From: Candidatus Thorarchaeota archaeon
Lineage (GTDB): Archaea; Asgardarchaeota; Thorarchaeia; Thorarchaeales; Thorarchaeaceae
Length of the DNA stretch: 64,000 nt
Direction of reading: 5' to 3'
Assembly (NCBI GenBank): GCA_963726195.1
Contig: CAVSBO010000016.1
Location: 192,001 to 256,000, forward strand
Both the position numbers and the translations under genes were made by a program. Shown here piece by piece: positions 7,430 through 31,445 of this stretch; positions within the stretch are counted from its first letter, which is position 1; every line of letters starts with the position of its first letter. A model generated the notes under the pieces. It did not search any database. It had not been told where the DNA came from and was given only the letters and a program-made list of their open reading frames with translations.

Positions 7430-9236
7430 GTGTCGCCAATGGCACAGGCTGAATCAGGAGGGAAAACTCGACTTCGCTCCCCCATCGTAACTGTCCTCGG
7501 TCACATCGACCACGGCAAGACCTCTTTGCTTGACAAGATGCGTGGAACTGCCGTCCAAGAACGAGAGACAGGGGGAATGACTCAGCATATTGGTGCATCA
7601 TTCTTTCCAACAGAGACCATCCTCTCAATATGCGGGGACCTCCTGAAGACTGTGAAGACGGACCTCACAATAGACGGTCTCCTGTTCATAGACACCCCCG
7701 GGCACGAAGCATACCTGAATCTCAGAAGAAGGGGCGGTGCGGTTGCTGATATTGCAGTACTTGTCATTGATATCAACGAAGGAGCCATGTCCCAAACTTA
7801 CGAATCCCTGAATATCCTGCGAACAGGACGAACTCCGTTCGTAGTCGCAGCAAACAAGCTAGACAAGGTGCCGGGTTGGAAAACGAAACCGGGATTCACA
7901 CTGGTTCAGACAATCAAAGCGCAGAAGGCGAGTACCCAAACTGAGATTGACAAGCGCCTGTACGACATCGTTGGTGCGCTCTCGGCCAACGGCATCGACT
8001 CTGAACGTTTTGACCGTGTGACGGACTTCACCAAGACCGTCACAATCGTGCCCACGAGCGCTAAGACGGGCGAAGGCATTCCGGAACTCCTCATGGTCCT
8101 CGCCGGCCTCACCCAGCAATTCATGAAAGACAGGTTGAAGATTGTGACGGGGCCTGCAAAGGGGACTGTCTTGGAGGTCAGAGAGGAGACGGGTCTCGGC
8201 TTGACTCTTGACACAATCATCTACGAAGGTACGCTGAAGAAGACCGACACAATCGTGGTCGGCGGTCTCGATGATGTCATTGTGGCCAAAATCAGAGCAC
8301 TGCTTTTGCCCAAACCGCTTGATGAGATTCGTGATCCTAGAGAAAAATTCAGCAGCGTTTCAGAGGTCAGTGCTGCAGCCGGAATCAAGATAGTCGCTCC
8401 AGATATTGCGGGCGCCATGTCCGGAGCCCCGCTCTACGCCTTGGACAAGCCCGAGAATCTGGAGGCTTACAAGAACAAAGTGCGCGAGGAACTCAGGTCG
8501 ATTCGAATCCAGAAGGACTCTTCAGGGATTGTACTGAAGGCTGACACACTGGGGTCACTAGAGGCTGTTACGCAGTACCTGCAGGAACGCAAGGTTCCAG
8601 TTAGGATGGCAGATGTCGGACCGATAGTCAAGCGCGATATTCTGGAGGCAAGAGCTGCTGGGGAGACAGAACTTCTGAACGCAGTGGTACTCGGGTTCAA
8701 CGTAAAGACTGCACCTGAGATTCCCGATTTGGCTGCAGAGTACGGGGTTGAGGTCTTCCAGAACGATGTTATCTACCGCCTCTTCGATGAATACAACGCA
8801 TGGCTAATCGTTAAGAGAGAACAAGCCAAGGCAGAGTCGCTCAGCTCAATAATCAGACCCGGAAAGGTCGAAGTCATGCCTGAGTACATTTTCAGACGAA
8901 GCAATCCGGCAGTTGTTGGTGTGAAAGTCTCTGGCATAATCAGACCCAAGGTGGGCCTAATCAACTCCGCTGGCAAGCGAGTGGGATCGATTATACAGAT
9001 ACAGGATAGGAACGTGACTATAGATGAGGCCACTGACGGCATGGAGGTGGCGATATCCATCAGAGGACCCACCGTTGGTCGCCAAGTCAAGGAAGACGAT
9101 GTGCTCTACGTTGACATGCCTGACAAGCACGTTATCGTGGCCCGGACGAAGTTTGCAGGCGGACCTCTCTCGACAGGAGCTTGATGTTCTTGAAGAGATT
9201 GTTCAGGCTAAACGAGCAAGTGGTTCCTTCGTCTAG
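7430..9236 (+). CDS. infB: Translation initiation factor aIF5B/IF-2, indel near 9160
   Basis: 'GHIDHGKT', 'TQHIGA', 'DTPGHEAY', 'NKLD'; C-terminus continues in the shifted frame 'LSRQELDVLEEIVQAKR'. Confidence 0.96.
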
Positions 9237-9350
9237 GGTGGGCTTGATAGGCGACTTGTGCACAGGTTCGCATGATCAGAGTGATAACAGTGTCAAGTTC
9301 AATCGGTGGCCATTGATAACGTTTTTAGGCGTTCCTTGAGCTTGTGACGC

Positions 9351-9663
9351 GTGCAGCGGGTAGGGCGACTCGTTTGCCGCGAGCGAGACCACATGGCAAT
9401 AGTGGCGTCAGTAACCCGGCAGAGTGTGAAACCCAACCCCCTCAGTATTCGTCGAAGGACTATGACGAGTAGTCTCTGAAGTCTATCACGGCCACAGCAA
9501 CAATCGTAGGATTGTTGTGAGTGGATTAGATTGTCGAACCGGGTCAGGCCCTGGCGGGAACAGCCCTAAGGCTAGGTGATGGAGCCTCAGAGGAAACTGC
9601 TCCGAGGAGAGCGACGAGAGACTGCCTGGGAAGGGACAGACGAAACCTAAGGAGCCGCTGCAC
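9351..9663 (+). ncRNA. ffs: Archaeal SRP (7S) RNA
   Basis: 313 nt closed by GTGCAGCGG/CCGCTGCAC; helix 6 CAACAATC-GTAG-GATTGTTG; helix 8 GGGTCAGGCCC-TGGC-GGGAACAGCCC; followed by a T-tract. Confidence 0.9.
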
Positions 9664-9687
9664 CTCCTACTGTTCTTTTTCCACCAT

Positions 9688-10125
9688 TCGACAGGAATAG
9701 GCAAGTGGGCTAGCGCCGCAACCGCGACGCACACAGTCGAAAGCCCGAGGGAGAAAATCCTCTCAAGGGATATCCTTACTCCCCAAGAAGAATGCAGTAT
9801 TACATTCCCGGGAGTCTGCGGTGGTTCACGCCGCTCAAACGAGCCTTCCCGATTTCAGCGATGAAATTGGGATGAGTGATCATGACCCCACCGTGGTAAG
9901 AACTGTGGAAGGCCTCTCTGCCGTCGGGCACGATACACCGACATCACGACAGGAGAAAAAGGCCAGGTCTGTAGGAGGGATTCCATCTCAGTGATTACAG
10001 ACGAAGCCTCTGCTAACCCCGCGCCATCAGCAGTCGGGGGGCGGCGACGCCAGACAGAGGAAGGGCAGAACACAGAAGTTTCTTGCAGTTGAGCTTCACT
10101 CACATCAGAGAAACAGCGTCAGAGC
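9688..10125 (+). ncRNA. Stand-alone omega-RNA-like structured RNA homologous to the 3' end of the TnpB gene at 29692-31424 (putative guide from ~10104)
   Basis: 29/38 ungapped identity between 9884-9921 and 31198-31235; shared 3' block GAAGGG..GAACACAGAAG..GTTGAG..CACTCAC ending at 10103 and 31424; compensatory stems; many hairpins, e.g. a GCGA-capped one at 9847-9872. Confidence 0.75.
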
Positions 10126-10206
10126 AGGCTGGCTCCTTGCGCGCCGGCCTGTTTCCTTCGCAATGTTTATGAGAACACCTGTACGCTCTTGTTTCTCGCT
10201 AGAACA

Positions 10207-10381
10207 GCCGGGGTTTCCTAGACCGGTCGGGGCGCCTTTTTTGACGCCACGGGGCGCTATGGAGCCAGCCTGCTAACATTTGAGCATTATGTGTGCTTGC
10301 AGATAGTTGGTGTCGAAAGACTCGAGGGTTCAAAGGGTCTCACGGTTTTCGTGAGGCCGGAAAGTCCCTCCCCCGGCGCCA
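10207..10381 (+). tRNA. tRNA-Ser(GCT) with three introns (~10227-10257 D-loop; 10276-10304 at 37/38; 10335-10364 at 59/60)
   Basis: Acceptor GCCGGGG/CCCCGGC-G-CCA, anticodon arm CCAGC-CTGCTAA-GTTGG, variable arm, T-arm GAGGG-TTCAAAT-CCCTC after intron removal; BHB-like junctions. Confidence 0.88.
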
Positions 10382-10445
10382 CTTCTTTTCCATTACGCGA
10401 GCAAGCGACTAACACTGAAGCCTGTAGTCATAATCCTAGGCTAAT

Positions 10446-10847
10446 TCATCCTACGAACAATCGAGTCCTGCAGCTCGGGCAAAGCACGACCTCATCCTCG
10501 ACCGGCGTCGCATTCGTGATTTCAAATGAGAACCCGCACTGCGGGCATCGGAGCGTGTCCAGACCGGCCACGTGCTCGGCCGGAAGTGCATGGCGTGTCA
10601 TCGAGTCGAATATCCTCCTCTCGCTGCTCTCGTCGACGGGAGAGATGGGGCGGCCCTGTGCCCAGCGAAATGCTGCAAACAGCATAAGAAGAACCATCGG
10701 CACAATCAGAAACGTTGAGAGCAGACCGGAATCGGAAGTGGAGTAGAGCAGAGTGCCGTAGGTTATAAGAATCGCGAGAATGGCAAGGACAGAGAAGACA
10801 ATCCAACGGCCAGTGTTGCTGCTTTGAGAGGATTCTGGTGCCATCAT
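10446..10847 (-). CDS. Small membrane protein with two TM helices and a C-terminal Zn-ribbon
   Basis: Two hydrophobic segments; CPQC...CPSC. Confidence 0.65.
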   Translation of the reverse strand: MMAPESSQSSNTGRWIVFSVLAILAILITYGTLLYSTSDSGLLSTFLIVPMVLLMLFAAFRWAQGRPISPVDESSERRIFDSMTRHALPAEHVAGLDTLRCPQCGFSFEITNATPVEDEVVLCPSCRTRLFVG

Positions 10848-10938
10848 AGCGATTCGTTCACTGCGAAGTTGGATCATGATAATCAGTCTTGCGTCTGAGG
10901 CTATTCGTGCTGTGGTCTAGACTAGTAAAGGCGAACGC

Positions 10939-10994: not shown

Positions 10995-12431
10995 CTACTT
11001 GACAGTGCTCATGTCTCTTGGGGTGACATCAAGAACGATTCCGACAGCCACCGTGATGCCCATGTCACGCACTGCGAATCTTCCCAGCTGCGGGATGTCT
11101 TTGTACTTCTCGATTGCTAGGGGCTTGAGTGGAACGAGTTTAGCAATCATGCTCTCACCCCTCTTCACGAACTCGGGGTTCTCCTGAATGACCTGGTTTG
11201 TACGCTGGTCGATTTTCTTCGTGATCTCGTCGAATCTGCAGGCTACTTGGGCCGTGTGAGCGTGCACGACGGGAGTGTAACCCACTGTGATTGCCGTCGG
11301 ATGCTGGATGACCATCACCTGGCCTTGGAAGTCCTGTGCGACAGTAGGTGGTTTCTCAGCTGGTCCAGCAACATCTCCTCGGGTCAAATCCTTCCTTTCG
11401 ATGCCTCGGACGTTGAATCCTATGTTATCACCTGGCACTGCCTGTGTGAGCTGCTCGTGGTGCATCTCAATCGTCTTCACCTCACCGGTCTTGTTGGCGG
11501 GCATGAAGCTGATCTTTTGCCCCGGCTTCATAACTCCGGTCTCGACACGACCAACCGGCACAGTGCCAACTCCCTTAATCGAATAGACGTCGTTGATTGG
11601 CACTCTCAACGGCTTGTCTAATGGCTTTGGTGGAAGTGTGACGGCGTCCAGAGCCTCAAGCAAGCATGGCCCAGTGTACCATGGGGTCTTGGCCGGAGTC
11701 TTCGTCTTCAGATTGACAGCCTCAAGTGCGGATGTTGGAATGAATGGGATCTGATCGACCTTGTAGCCAATGCTCTTAAGGAAGTCAGCGAGTTCTTCCT
11801 TAACTTCCTTGTATCGAGCTTCACTGTACTTGACTTCATCCATTTTGTTGATGCAGACAATAAGAGTCGGAACGCCCAGAGTCATCGCAAGGTATGCATG
11901 CTCCTTTGTCTGACCGCCTACACCAACGCCTGCCTCGAACTCACCGGTCTTAGCAGACACGACTAGCATCGCGACATCGGCTTGCGACGCGCCTGTAATC
12001 ATGTTCTTGACGAAGTCCCTGTGGCCCGGTGCGTCAATGACTGTGTAGTAGTACTTTGGTGTCATGAACTTGAAGAACGCGATATCGATTGTGATGCCAC
12101 GCTCTCGCTCTTCTTTCAGACGGTCCAGTGCAAAGGCCCATGCCTGCTCAGGACGACCGAGTCGTTCTGCTTCGGCCCTGTTGGCTGCGACTGTCCTCTC
12201 GTCAAGGGCACCGGCCTCGTAGAGAAGTCGCCCCGTGAGAGTGCTCTTCCCGTGATCTATGTGTCCAATCACAACGAGGTTGAGGTGCTCCTTTCCCTTT
12301 TCTTTACCCGCTGCAGGAGCGGCCGCCGGTGCGGGTGCTGCTCCAGCCTTTGGCTTTTCAGCTGCAGGCTTCGGCTTTTCAGCTGCAGGCTTTGCCTTTT
12401 CTGCTGCGGGCTTTGTTTCTTTCTTACTCAA
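10995..12431 (-). CDS. tuf: Elongation factor 1-alpha with a Lys/Pro/Ala-rich N-terminal extension
   Basis: 'GHIDHGKST', 'ERERGITID', '[20 protein letters not shown]', 'NKMD', 'LGRFAVRDM'. Confidence 0.98.
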
Positions 12432-12510: not shown

Positions 12511-13692
12511 TGACATACTCCTATGACCTAAGTCAAGGGGTTCTAGCGTCGGTTGCATTCATGACCGTTGCGCCTCTGGGGGTGCCAGTGCTCCCCTCCT
12601 CTGCATCCCTTTCTGCAAAGGATTGACTCACGCCCGATGATGCCTCTGCAATATTGAATGCCGCATTGGCATCGGCATGGTCAACGTGCCCGCAAACGGG
12701 ACACCTAAACTCCTTCTTGTTCCTGTCACCAATCGAGCCACACATGCTGCAAGTCTTGGACGTATATGCAGGATTGACGTATTCGACCTCTACTCCGAGC
12801 AGCCCGGCCTTGTATTCTATCATCTTTCTCAACTGATAGAACGACCAGCTGTGCAGGGAGTATCTGAACGTTCGAGTCGTTCTTGCGGTACCTCTGATAC
12901 CGCTCAGGTCTTCTAGTCGTATCCCACATCTGTGTTCGACAGCCGTATCCACGATCTTTCGGCTCATCTGGTGGTTGAGTTCTCTGACAATCATCGATTC
13001 CCTGTTCTTTATTCTCTTCAGTTTCCGGTGCTTTCCCATCCGTTGAAGTCTTCTTCTCATCTCCTTGTACTTCTTGTGAATATGATATGCCTTCCTTCCG
13101 AGTTTCAGGACCTTTCCTGTGGCAGGAATTGCGGCCACCATCGCATGGCCCGTTGCATTCAGATCGATACCGATGTATCCGTCCGGAGGGAATGGCTCTG
13201 CTTCCTTTACAGTCACGGAGACATACAGGTGTCTCCTGTCAACCTCTATCTGGTTGATCTTAGCAAAATCGCACCTGAACCCGTACGCGAACTGCACTCT
13301 TAGAGAAGGAATCCTTATTGTTCTCTTCTCGCGATTGCACTGTATGCCTTGGGACGGAATCGTTAGCTTGACAGAACGTACTTTCTTGGTCCGCCTGTTT
13401 CGTCCGTACTTCCTGAGTACCTGGTTCGCTATCACCGAGTTCAGGCCAATGTGTTTCACGATGGGAGTCGTTAATTGAACAGGCGAATTTACTGCAATCT
13501 CTGCAATTGCTTTCGCCTTTCTCAGCTCTTCGGAGAAGTCGTGGTCGTGCCGAAGCTTGTACGTCAGTATCACTGATTCTTCTCCTCCCTGATGTACTTC
13601 TTAATGCATACTATACGAATATACGCTCCTTCTGTACATCGACTGGGTGTATGGATTCATCCCACGGCTCAAGTCGTGGGCGTTCTCTCACT
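12511..13692 (-). mobile_element. IS200/IS605-family (IS1341-like, tnpB only) element
   Basis: Subterminal hairpins CCCACGGC-TCAA-GTCGTGGG (~13660-13680) and AGAACCCCTTGACTTAGGTCATAGGAGTATGTCA (~12511-12544) flank tnpB; no tnpA. Confidence 0.8.
12533..13573 (-). CDS. tnpB: TnpB RNA-guided nuclease, canonical RuvC
   Basis: GIDLN (RuvC-I), RLEDL (RuvC-II), CSMC/CPVC Zn finger, HADANAA (RuvC-III). Confidence 0.92.
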   Translation of the reverse strand: MILTYKLRHDHDFSEELRKAKAIAEIAVNSPVQLTTPIVKHIGLNSVIANQVLRKYGRNRRTKKVRSVKLTIPSQGIQCNREKRTIRIPSLRVQFAYGFRCDFAKINQIEVDRRHLYVSVTVKEAEPFPPDGYIGIDLNATGHAMVAAIPATGKVLKLGRKAYHIHKKYKEMRRRLQRMGKHRKLKRIKNRESMIVRELNHQMSRKIVDTAVEHRCGIRLEDLSGIRGTARTTRTFRYSLHSWSFYQLRKMIEYKAGLLGVEVEYVNPAYTSKTCSMCGSIGDRNKKEFRCPVCGHVDHADANAAFNIAEASSGVSQSFAERDAEEGSTGTPRGATVMNATDARTP

Positions 13693-29448: not shown

Positions 29449-29691
29449 AGATGAGTTGAAAAGCAGCTTTATAAAGAAACCGACATTTTTTGGATTTCTC
29501 CGTTTGACAATCGTGGGCCTTATAATATCCCGATTGTCGGAAAACGCATGGATAATCTTGTTGGCTTAATAACTTTAAATAAACTAGTAACACAGCATGA
29601 ATACGAGTTCAAAACCTCCGGTAGAGACAGAAAAGCGAGTGAACTCATCCAAGGCGCACGTCTCAACTTTAAATAAACAGGGCGGTCGGCG
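29449..29691. promoter_or_regulatory. AT-rich divergent promoter region
   Basis: TATA-like TTTATAAA at 29468; duplicated AACTTTAAATAAAC at 29571 and 29665; inverted repeat GACAATCG/CGATTGTC at 29506-29538. Confidence 0.6.
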
Positions 29692-31383
29692 ATGAAAGAA
29701 TTCGGGCCAATCATCACGAGTGTGAAAATCCCCATACACAGGGACGACATGACACCTGTTCAGATGACGCGATTGTCACAGATTACAGGCCGTGACACTC
29801 GCGTAATCAAGGCCTACCTAGGCGTAATCGAACGCAACCAATCGCAACTGCGCACCGGCAGAAGAACTCGGCTCGACAGAGGAACACTCGACGAACTCAC
29901 ACTGACAACACGGCAATGCAAGAACAACAGAACATCAGTTCCTCATGATTTCAAAGCAAGATTTCCCAGAATGTCCACTAATGAGTTTGGACAGTGTCGT
30001 GACACAGCAATAGCGATGTGGACAAGCTATCTCGAACTCGGGGGCGCAAGGCCTCTAACCTCAAAGAACTACAAGCCCCGTAAGATCCCACGGTGCGTAT
30101 TCCCAAATTGCTTCAGTCTTGTCCGCGATTCATCGACAAGTAAGTACACACTCGAACTGCGCGATTCGCTTGACTCGACACGCAAAGGCTCCCGACAACA
30201 CGACAAGCTTTGCATACCTCTCTCTGTTTCGGATTACCATGAGACAAGACTCGGAGAGGGCGAAGTCAAGTCCGTCAGAGTAGTCAAAGACTCTCTCCAC
30301 AAGTGGTGGGCCGTCTTCTCAGTAAACCTCGAACCAGAACCACAGGATTCCCGCGGAAAGCAACCGGCAGTCTTGGCCATAGACTTGGGCATAAAGAAAG
30401 CAGCAACAACAGTGCTCCTTACGCAGAACGGCATCAAAGAAGTACGCTACTGGAAAGGAACCGAAAAGCTCCAACACATGGCCGCATATGATGCTGCAGT
30501 TGGAGCGCTCCAGAGAGCTAAAACACAGCCGTCTGACCATAACAACGTCCCGCCATCGCTAACCGAGAAGCTCTCCAAGTTGCGTCACAAGCGGGCGAAC
30601 ATCAGCAGAGAGTACGACCGGAAGCTGGTCAAAGACATATCCCAATACGCCCTTGAGCTGAACAAGACATACAATCTATACGTTGCCATAGGCCGCCTTT
30701 CTGGAATCAGGAACCGAGCTCGAAAAGGAAACTTCCAAGGGCCTCGCTTTCGAGGCATGATTCACCGATGGTCGTTTGCCAGAGTCAGTGACTCATTTGA
30801 GCATAAACTCGCAACCCTCGGACTTAGTACACGAAGATTCCGCCGCGTTGCTGAGACCTGGACCAGCCGTGTGTGTCACAGGTGCGGGCATGTCGGCTAC
30901 AGACCTAAGCAGAGTCTCTTCATATGCGGCACCTGTGGGCTCCATACCAACGCAGACCTGAATGCTGCCGTCAACATTGGACGACGGCTTATCATGCTCA
31001 TTCCCGCTCTGCGGGATGAGACCAAGGGACTAGGAATGTCGCTTCCTCCTTGGAGGAAAGCTGCGCCAAAAGCCCCAAGGGGCAGAAACCCTAAGGGGAA
31101 GTCCCTGCCCTCCCAGAGGTCGCCCGCCTCGTTCAAAGGAGGGCCCGTGGCTGCCGACCGTGCTCAAATGCATTTGATAATGCCTGAGTGCGGCGAAGAC
31201 CCCGCCATGGAAAAGACTGTGGAAAGACCGTCTGCTCCCGGATCCACCGGCGATTCCGGGACGAATCAGCAGCAGAAGGAAACCACGCACCGGGAGAGGA
31301 ACAAAGTTCCAGAAATCTCGGGCAAAGCTCACGCACAGGCATTGGGACAACTCCCATTGTCAGACTGGCGACAGCCGTCATGA
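29692..31383 (+). CDS. tnpB: TnpB-family nuclease with rearranged (Fanzor-type) RuvC-II and a long C-terminal tail
   Basis: AIDLG (RuvC-I D at 30382), VAIGRL (G in place of E, 30691), VAETWTSRVC (alternative E, 30853), CHRC/CGTC, NADLNAA (RuvC-III D at 30955). Confidence 0.88.
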   Translation: MKEFGPIITSVKIPIHRDDMTPVQMTRLSQITGRDTRVIKAYLGVIERNQSQLRTGRRTRLDRGTLDELTLTTRQCKNNRTSVPHDFKARFPRMSTNEFGQCRDTAIAMWTSYLELGGARPLTSKNYKPRKIPRCVFPNCFSLVRDSSTSKYTLELRDSLDSTRKGSRQHDKLCIPLSVSDYHETRLGEGEVKSVRVVKDSLHKWWAVFSVNLEPEPQDSRGKQPAVLAIDLGIKKAATTVLLTQNGIKEVRYWKGTEKLQHMAAYDAAVGALQRAKTQPSDHNNVPPSLTEKLSKLRHKRANISREYDRKLVKDISQYALELNKTYNLYVAIGRLSGIRNRARKGNFQGPRFRGMIHRWSFARVSDSFEHKLATLGLSTRRFRRVAETWTSRVCHRCGHVGYRPKQSLFICGTCGLHTNADLNAAVNIGRRLIMLIPALRDETKGLGMSLPPWRKAAPKAPRGRNPKGKSLPSQRSPASFKGGPVAADRAQMHLIMPECGEDPAMEKTVERPSAPGSTGDSGTNQQQKETTHRERNKVPEISGKAHAQALGQLPLSDWRQPS

Positions 31384-31445
31384 GAAGGGTGGAACACAGA
31401 AGCATCTATGTTGAGTCCACTCACCCAACAAAAGCAGAGTCTTCG
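31025..31445 (+). ncRNA. Putative omega-RNA overlapping the tnpB 3' end (scaffold to 31424, then putative guide)
   Basis: Homologous and covarying with 9688-10103; homology stops at CACTCAC 31424. Confidence 0.7.

Follow-up and report, generated by a model that had tools for sequence, protein, structure and literature searches.

The window, that is, the whole stretch of 64,000 nucleotides analyzed here, corresponds to positions 192001 to 256000 of contig C16, in an assembly of 2.9 Mb and 19 contigs that is 88.9% complete. The closest relatives of its TnpB protein in public records were all found in MAGs named "Candidatus Thorarchaeota archaeon." Two loci of the window were compared (Table 1). 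In one of them, an SRP RNA gene is followed by an omega-RNA scaffold with no tnpB gene of its own (referred to below as the orphan), a hairpin, and a tRNA-Ser gene. The other is a complete IS1341-type element (the resident element), whose omega-RNA scaffold overlaps the end of its tnpB gene.

TABLE 1 Features of the orphan locus and of the resident element (positions are those of the window)
Feature	Position	Strand	Basis or remark
aIF5B-like GTPase	7430-9184	+	
Archaeal SRP RNA gene	9353-9661	+	Rfam RF01857, full-length match, 66.6 bits, E 2.6e-14
T-rich terminator TTCTTTTT (T5) of the SRP RNA	9675-9682	+	
Orphan omega-RNA scaffold/right end (RE) of an IS1341-type TnpB element, sister subfamily	~9683-10122	+	
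Guide position (first 16 nt past the orphan RE)	10123-10138	+	
9-bp hairpin CAGGCTGGC/GCCGGCCTG, then T/C tract	10124-10152	+	Read directly
TATA-like box of tRNA-Ser	~10163-10172	+	
tRNA-Ser(GCU), three introns (D-loop, 37/38, T-loop)	10208-10381	+	Alignment with G009 and G006 orthologues
Small membrane ORF	10446-10877	-	
EF-1alpha	10995-12431	-	
Resident complete IS1341-type element	29571-31443	+	Left-end alignment, 14-mer repeat, RE end
tnpB (P0001), 563 aa	29692-31383	+	Pfam PF07282 and PF01385; PDB Cas12f/TnpB matches
Resident omega-RNA scaffold	31015-31443	+	nhmmer E 8.1e-23; overlaps last ~120 tnpB codons

Though full-length, the Rfam match of the SRP RNA gene scored well below the gathering score of the family (96.5 bits), and standard annotation would overlook the gene. 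When positions 9300 to 10300 were compared by BLAST with 40 relatives, this gene was found to be 72 to 80% identical in 23 of the 24 family genomes. The tRNA-Ser(GCU) gene was likewise overlooked, both by Rfam at the gathering score and by ARAGORN; its orthologues in the related genomes G009 and G006 contain fewer introns. On the reverse strand, 2.4 kb from the orphan, a 346-amino-acid ORF (12533 to 13573) has a distant TnpB-like C-terminal region, with ∼33% identity to P0001 over residues 293 to 430. About 20 distant TnpB homologs of that kind are present in the genome.

Judged by alignment and profile scores, the orphan is truly homologous to the omega-RNA/right-end module of ∼440 nt that lies at the resident tnpB 3′ end. 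Local alignment of both RNAs gave z values of ∼9 to 11 over dinucleotide shuffles and random genomic controls, and the 29/38 identity that the sequence-only reading had reported between 9884 to 9921 and 31198 to 31235 was exact. An nhmmer profile built exclusively from copies in other genomes recognized the orphan with an E value of 1.7e-98 (330 bits, profile positions 5 to 435) and also the 3′ region of the resident tnpB; nothing else was detected with it in the whole 2.9-Mb genome, and thus no second orphan copy was found in the assembly. The profile was needed because a BLAST search of the orphan against its own genome did not recover the resident copy. A search of positions 9000 to 10600 against Rfam rendered nothing but the SRP RNA at an E value of ≤1, and over the whole window, searched at the gathering score, the omega-RNA had no family match; apart from the SRP RNA, only tRNA families matched.

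In the comparison with the 40 relatives, positions 9690 to 10105 were present in up to 13 copies per genome, with identities of 68 to 76%. About 20 of these copies overlap tnpB 3′ ends and reach the right end of the element, the conserved block opening just past the RuvC-III motif (NADxNxAxNI) and running to the transposon end. The orphan had been described as having no nuclease-coding part. The tnpB gene is indeed absent, but former codons of the C-terminal tail, downstream of RuvC-III, are present; their frame is open for 86 codons up to the same stop as in the full element L057, with one frameshift near its start. The corresponding frame of the resident tnpB (31000 to 31383), like that of nearly all full-length members, remains open across the omega-RNA region, over ∼115 codons, and the open frames of the full-length family members encode 558 to 628 amino acids or more. 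In intact elements the same DNA thus serves as a structured RNA and as a low-complexity protein tail.

The secondary structure was derived from an alignment of 23 sequences, which rendered a consensus of 100 pairs, and its support was assessed by counting pairs. The covariation that had been put forward as a check on the structure was strong. Double changes were observed in 59 of the 100 pairs, compared with 17 to 24 when the partners were slid, and 94.8% of the cells were paired, compared with 40 to 45% in the slid controls; none of 500 shuffles attained the observed values. One helix had been singled out from the two window copies for its three double changes (ACTCCCC at 9778 and GGGAGT at 9810 versus GCCCTCC at 31107 and GGAGGGC at 31138), and these were borne out. 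The RNA is therefore a large (∼440-nt) structured omega-RNA family that is absent from Rfam. The ISDra2 scaffold is several times shorter.

The orphan forms 91 of the 100 consensus pairs, within the range of the other copies (88 to 97), and three of its pairs are private double-compensatory changes. Nine pairs are broken, two of which are invariant elsewhere, and 8 of the 90 otherwise invariant positions are changed (0 to 5 in most copies, 7 to 11 in the most divergent TnpB-linked ones). Among its private substitutions, 6 of the 10 that fall at stem positions break a pair, a share similar to that of the long branches linked to TnpB. TnpB-linked copies outside the profile scored 328 to 393 bits, so that the score of the orphan is similar to those of many of them. 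For its part, the resident RNA forms 69 of the 100 pairs of the family consensus. Twenty pairs differ on both sides between the orphan and the resident RNA yet stay paired, and the most conserved core, ACTGTGGAA...GAACACAGAAG, is common to both.

The sequence-only reading was thus correct in describing a nuclease-less omega-RNA module with a conserved, covarying structure, but not in taking it for a copy of the resident RNA. With RNAs attached to sister-subfamily TnpBs the orphan shares 68 to 76% identity, compared with 48% for the resident RNA. The TnpBs with orphan-like RNAs are only 41 to 46% identical to P0001, whose own nearest relatives reach 51 to 56% and have RNAs that score only 48 to 127 bits on the profile. 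Since the orphan is closer to the RNAs of these more distant TnpBs, it does not duplicate the resident RNA, and sequence identity assigns it to the right end of a sister subfamily of the resident element. A tblastn search of the assembled genome (88.9% complete) for a cognate TnpB of that subfamily found, besides the resident protein, only distant homologs of ∼30% identity, although a cognate tnpB could lie in the unassembled part. No orphan-type RNA was found by BLAST in genomes of the same genus.

More than 60 copies of the family share the right-end motif ...AAAYRGGTYAK|, directly after which their flanks diverge (63 copies). The orphan aligns with this end and terminates in ...AAACAGCGTCAG| at 10122; the resident element terminates in ...GCAGAGTCTT| at 31443. 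Both copies contain the CACTCAC noted previously, but they do not diverge straight after it: conservation runs ∼20 nt further, through a terminal hairpin of the TTTCTTGCA...TGTAAGAAA type followed by the end motif. Consequently, the segments proposed as guides (10104 to 10123 and 31425 to 31444) correspond to the conserved transposon end, and the guide positions start at 10123 and 31444. A genomic search with the proposed guides gave no other match, as expected for sequence belonging to the element. At its 5′ side the homology of the orphan begins at ∼9683, ∼15 nt ahead of the first helix. Its placement behind the SRP RNA gene was confirmed, the gap being ∼21 nt instead of the ∼25 nt given before.

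The left end was defined from an alignment of 23 elements. The order found was flank, YTTMAT (predicted TAM), a 13- to 14-nt box containing TATA, the hairpin GAGTTCAAAACC...GAGTGAACTC, an RE-like tail (AAACAGGTCAG), the box again, and the ATG. In the resident element the predicted TAM is TTAAT (29566 to 29570). The 21 nt that separate the orphan from the SRP RNA contain the SRP terminator only, with no left-end hairpin, 14-mer, or TAM. Neither was a TATA-like box found upstream of the orphan, unlike in TnpB-less classes of the relatives.

The box that opens the left end is an element-specific direct repeat of 13 to 14 nt in all full elements, namely, the resident one (29571 to 29584 and 29665 to 29678) and 22 related ones (L057, L039, and L048 among them). 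One copy follows YTTMAT, and the other lies 92 to 101 nt further on, after the RE-like hairpin and the AAACAGGTCAG tail. Identity between the two copies averaged 11.95/13 within an element and 6.82/13 between elements. The inner junction resembles an RE-to-LE circle junction, or a built-in pair of TAM plus target and end plus guide.

Comparison with the relatives indicates that the orphan, together with the hairpin that follows it, is a lineage-specific insertion. In G009 only ∼57 nt separate the SRP RNA end from the tRNA-Ser promoter, and in G006 the same two genes are ∼900 nt apart, with unrelated DNA in between. The 9-bp hairpin is absent from both spacers. Linkage of the SRP RNA and tRNA-Ser genes was observed in several further genera. 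In G001 and G003, which belong to the same genus, the DNA past the SRP RNA was unrelated and no tRNA-Ser pattern was detected in it.

A core 16-mer of the RNA had ∼210 occurrences, spread over 37 of the 86 family genomes, and none in the reversed control. Copies of the omega-RNA exceed tnpB genes severalfold in many Thorarchaeota genomes (G014, G006, G004, G045, and G046, among others); in G014 there were 42 core-motif matches for 7 tnpB matches. At least three classes can be distinguished among the TnpB-less copies by their upstream parts, all of them converging no more than ∼25 nt from the start of the RNA. In class A, a left-end hairpin of its own stands ∼200 nt upstream and is followed by the RNA and the RE; the left part of this class showed no similarity to the left end of the full element. 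In class B, a TTAAATAG box lies ∼20 nt ahead of the RNA (from the box end to GGACTAGG). The TATA-like boxes upstream of some TnpB-less classes suggest independent transcription units. One TnpB-less copy, L102 (G046:C244, ∼1030 to 1150), lies ∼60 nt behind a tRNA-Arg(CCG) gene and ∼330 nt before a tRNA-Arg(GCG) gene, with a TTTATAA box; the sequence past its RE (GTAGTTTAAAAG) resembles its upstream box (GTAGTTTATAAG).

Such copies resemble the PATEs, palindrome-associated transposase-free derivatives of IS605-type elements that have been described in Haloquadratum, where they derive from IS1341-type elements (PMC3119063), and in Geobacillus (PMC10055086). PATEs often encode omega-RNAs that would need TnpB in trans (PMC10055086). 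The TnpB-less copies of the relatives, in multiple dispersed positions, fit this class, and class A is PATE-like in its organization. The orphan shares with PATEs the lack of an ORF, a subterminal hairpin at the right end, and the omega-RNA that it carries. It differs in having no left end, in being single copy, and in that no cognate TnpB was found; it would not be mobilizable.

The reading that we favor, with a probability of about 60%, is that the orphan is a solo right end, or 5′ truncation, stranded from an IS1341-type transposon (a TnpB-only member of the IS200/IS605 family). The short spacer between the genes for SRP RNA and tRNA-Ser would have received either an element from a subfamily with abundant members in other genera of Thorarchaeota or a PATE-like, TnpB-less derivative of such an element; the left end and tnpB would have been lost later or never brought along. 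By analogy with established IS200/IS605 biology, the RNA of the intact element would be made from the 3′ part of tnpB and would bind TnpB; the ∼16 nt past the RE would direct the cut to the empty donor site, beside a TTMAT-type motif, and the cut would lead to restoration of the transposon by recombination. Given that no cognate nuclease, left end, or promoter was found, the orphan should be able neither to move nor to home, and any transcription of it would be read-through of the SRP RNA terminator. Of the two possibilities offered by the sequence-only reading, an element with a deletion comes closer to the truth than a stand-alone guide; the deletion, however, would not have been internal, since the left end is missing as well.

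Most likely, the stranded right end is by now an inert, slowly decaying remnant. From the features of the locus we infer both the order of events and this lack of function. The nine broken pairs, the eight changed invariant positions, and the frameshift in the tail frame are signs of decay. Against inertness, the bit score of the orphan and its retained pairs are on a par with those of TnpB-linked copies, and its share of pair-breaking substitutions is no worse than that of their long branches. Moreover, a 5′ boundary so close to the first helix, recurring in at least three independent TnpB-less classes, is unlikely to result from random deletion; its coincidence with the RNA start hints at selection for a complete RNA, which counts against a mere remnant.

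The sequence at the guide position has to be considered here. The 14 nt from 10123 onward form a perfect inverted repeat of positions 10261 to 10274, that is, of exon 2 of the tRNA-Ser up to the anticodon. Positions 10123 to 10138 are antisense to positions ∼36 to 21 of tRNA-Ser(GCU), with 14 matches out of 16 to the tRNA of the window itself, while 10124 to 10138 match the tRNA-Ser of five other genomes at 15/15. Similar tails were found in other copies. In the full element L012 of G011, the next 18 nt past the RE are antisense to positions 38 to 21 of tRNA-Arg(GCG); in L051, the next 14 nt are antisense to positions 14 to 1 of tRNA-Asp, ending exactly at nucleotide 1; and L048, L079, L120, L126, and L129 carry comparable pieces from T arms, D arms, or anticodon arms. 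Among the 63 copies with a definable end, 7 had an antisense tRNA match of at least 13/15 anchored at the RE end, against a downstream background of 1.56% (binomial P value of 5.8e-5, scored with the tRNAs of this genome only), and sense matches showed no enrichment in these copies. The antisense-tRNA tendency at the guide position is thus statistically supported, but unexplained.

Several explanations of these tails were discarded. Simple insertion into tRNA genes fails, because L012, L048, and L051 have AT-rich, non-tRNA left flanks, the matches stop after the guide length, and the tRNA sites have no TTMAT. The tRNA-Ser gene of the window cannot be a TAM-flanked target, as AATGTT is found where TTMAT would be required. 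A guide common to the window and L012 was rejected as well, the L012 flank being antisense to a tRNA-Arg(GCG) with a similar anticodon stem. That the guide is aimed at a downstream tRNA as a rule is contradicted by the G046 copy between two tRNA-Arg genes, which has an unrelated flank. Nor was there a preference for tRNA-adjacent sites: ARAGORN, which misses intron-rich tRNAs, placed a tRNA beside 1 of 51 loci, that of the resident element.

These tails bear on an origin other than the stranding of a transposon end, namely, that the orphan was produced as a DNA copy of a mature omega-RNA, the copied unit spanning the RNA from its 5′ end through the ∼16-nt guide, or by aberrant repair at a cut right end, with a tail copied from a tRNA and a snap-back hairpin. 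We consider this origin unlikely. It would account for two boundaries that coincide with the expected RNA ends, for the missing left end and TAM, and for the 16 nt antisense to tRNA-Ser that are followed by a second hairpin arm; antisense is the orientation that a cDNA would give, and the second arm resembles a snap-back. The enrichment of antisense but not sense pieces is in agreement with it, as are the piece of L051, which stops at the first nucleotide of the tRNA, and the left flanks of L012, L048, and L051, which show that these were not insertions into tRNA genes. However, it lacks an identified reverse transcriptase or mechanism, the cases are few and were scored on the tRNAs of a single genome, and the full-length elements L012, L048, and L051 have the same tails next to intact left ends, so that copying of the whole unit is not needed. 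Fill-in templated by a tRNA at the cut right end is put forward as a hypothesis only.

The sequence-only reading had proposed instead that the orphan acts in trans to reprogram the resident TnpB. On this view, read-through from the SRP RNA gene would yield a functional guide RNA that stands alone; once its 5′ end had been trimmed, it would associate in trans with the resident TnpB and offer that nuclease a second guide (10123 to 10138). Nothing shows such use, and we find it quite improbable. The retention of the whole scaffold, including 91 of 100 pairs and compensatory changes of its own, and the 5′ boundary at the RNA start speak for it, and the two window RNAs agree in their fold, with 69 of 100 pairs formed by the resident one, and in the most conserved core. 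The resident TnpB keeps D231, E388, and D422. Omega-RNAs supplied in trans are functional in E. coli assays (10.1101/2023.11.20.567912), and those borne by PATEs are thought to use TnpB in trans (PMC10055086). On the other hand, the two RNAs are only 48% identical, with cognate proteins that share 41 to 46% identity with the resident one; the orphan has no TATA box, and immediately before it stands a T5 terminator; invariant positions are altered, including two pairs invariant elsewhere. The sole genomic match of the guide, in tRNA-Ser, has AATGTT and not TTMAT, and the orphan is single copy and was not found in genomes of the same genus.

Very doubtful, in turn, is a combination of both ideas, in which the guide position of the family is recurrently rewritten with 13- to 18-nt antisense copies of tRNAs, likely by tRNA-templated synthesis at the cut RE, and the orphan is in addition a live RNA, nuclease independent or loaded in trans, with a tRNA-Ser guide. 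If true, it would represent a primitive, template-copied acquisition of guides in a Cas12 ancestor. Finally, a host-domesticated, TnpB-independent function, for instance in regulating the three-intron pre-tRNA-Ser as an antisense RNA or in taking part in its processing, within a read-through transcript of the SRP RNA and tRNA-Ser genes, is highly improbable: a 14-nt perfect antisense to exon 2, anticodon included, does lie 124 nt upstream on the same strand, and the SRP RNA-tRNA-Ser synteny is conserved in the family, but the G009 and G006 spacers contain neither the orphan nor the antisense piece, the match to its own tRNA is 14/16 whereas the tRNA of other genera fits better, and similar tails occur elsewhere without a neighboring tRNA.

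As a stranded transposon end, the orphan is ordinary, TnpB-less carriers of omega-RNAs being already known. It resembles the omega-RNA (reRNA) of IS200/IS605 TnpB and the sotRNA of archaeal IS1341-type tnpB in being a structured RNA of the tnpB 3′ end that overlaps the end of the ORF, reaches the right end, and takes its guide from the flank (PMC4615843), and it differs from them in the absence of tnpB and in a scaffold of ∼440 nt with no Rfam family. With the guide RNAs of TldR it shares a TnpB-type guide that matches a host gene and not the donor site (10.1101/2023.11.30.569447). Unlike in those systems, no nuclease-dead partner is adjacent (the resident TnpB retains the three residues named above), the guide matches the body of a tRNA without TTMAT and not a promoter, and the locus is not conserved across genera. 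The homing guides of type V-K CASTs (∼17 nt), a system descended from TnpB, target tRNA genes near the element; here there is no such transposase machinery and no TAM at the tRNA site, and the geometry is not conserved in other copies.

The structure of a ∼440-nt omega-RNA for a TnpB family of Asgard archaea (Thorarchaeota) with a relocated glutamate should be useful for annotation and for the mining of editors, and exact element boundaries and a predicted TTMAT motif were gained with it. The antisense-tRNA tendency, should it prove mechanistic, bears on how RNA-guided nucleases first acquired guides. In the resident TnpB the RuvC-I (D231) and RuvC-III (D422) residues are kept, whereas the canonical RuvC-II glutamate (motif VAIGRLxxIR) is absent across the family (P0001 and 27 homologs). 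Just before the TWTS/zinc-finger region, E388 is invariant in the family and is predicted to be the relocated catalytic residue. A relocated catalytic glutamate is known for Fanzor-like clades.
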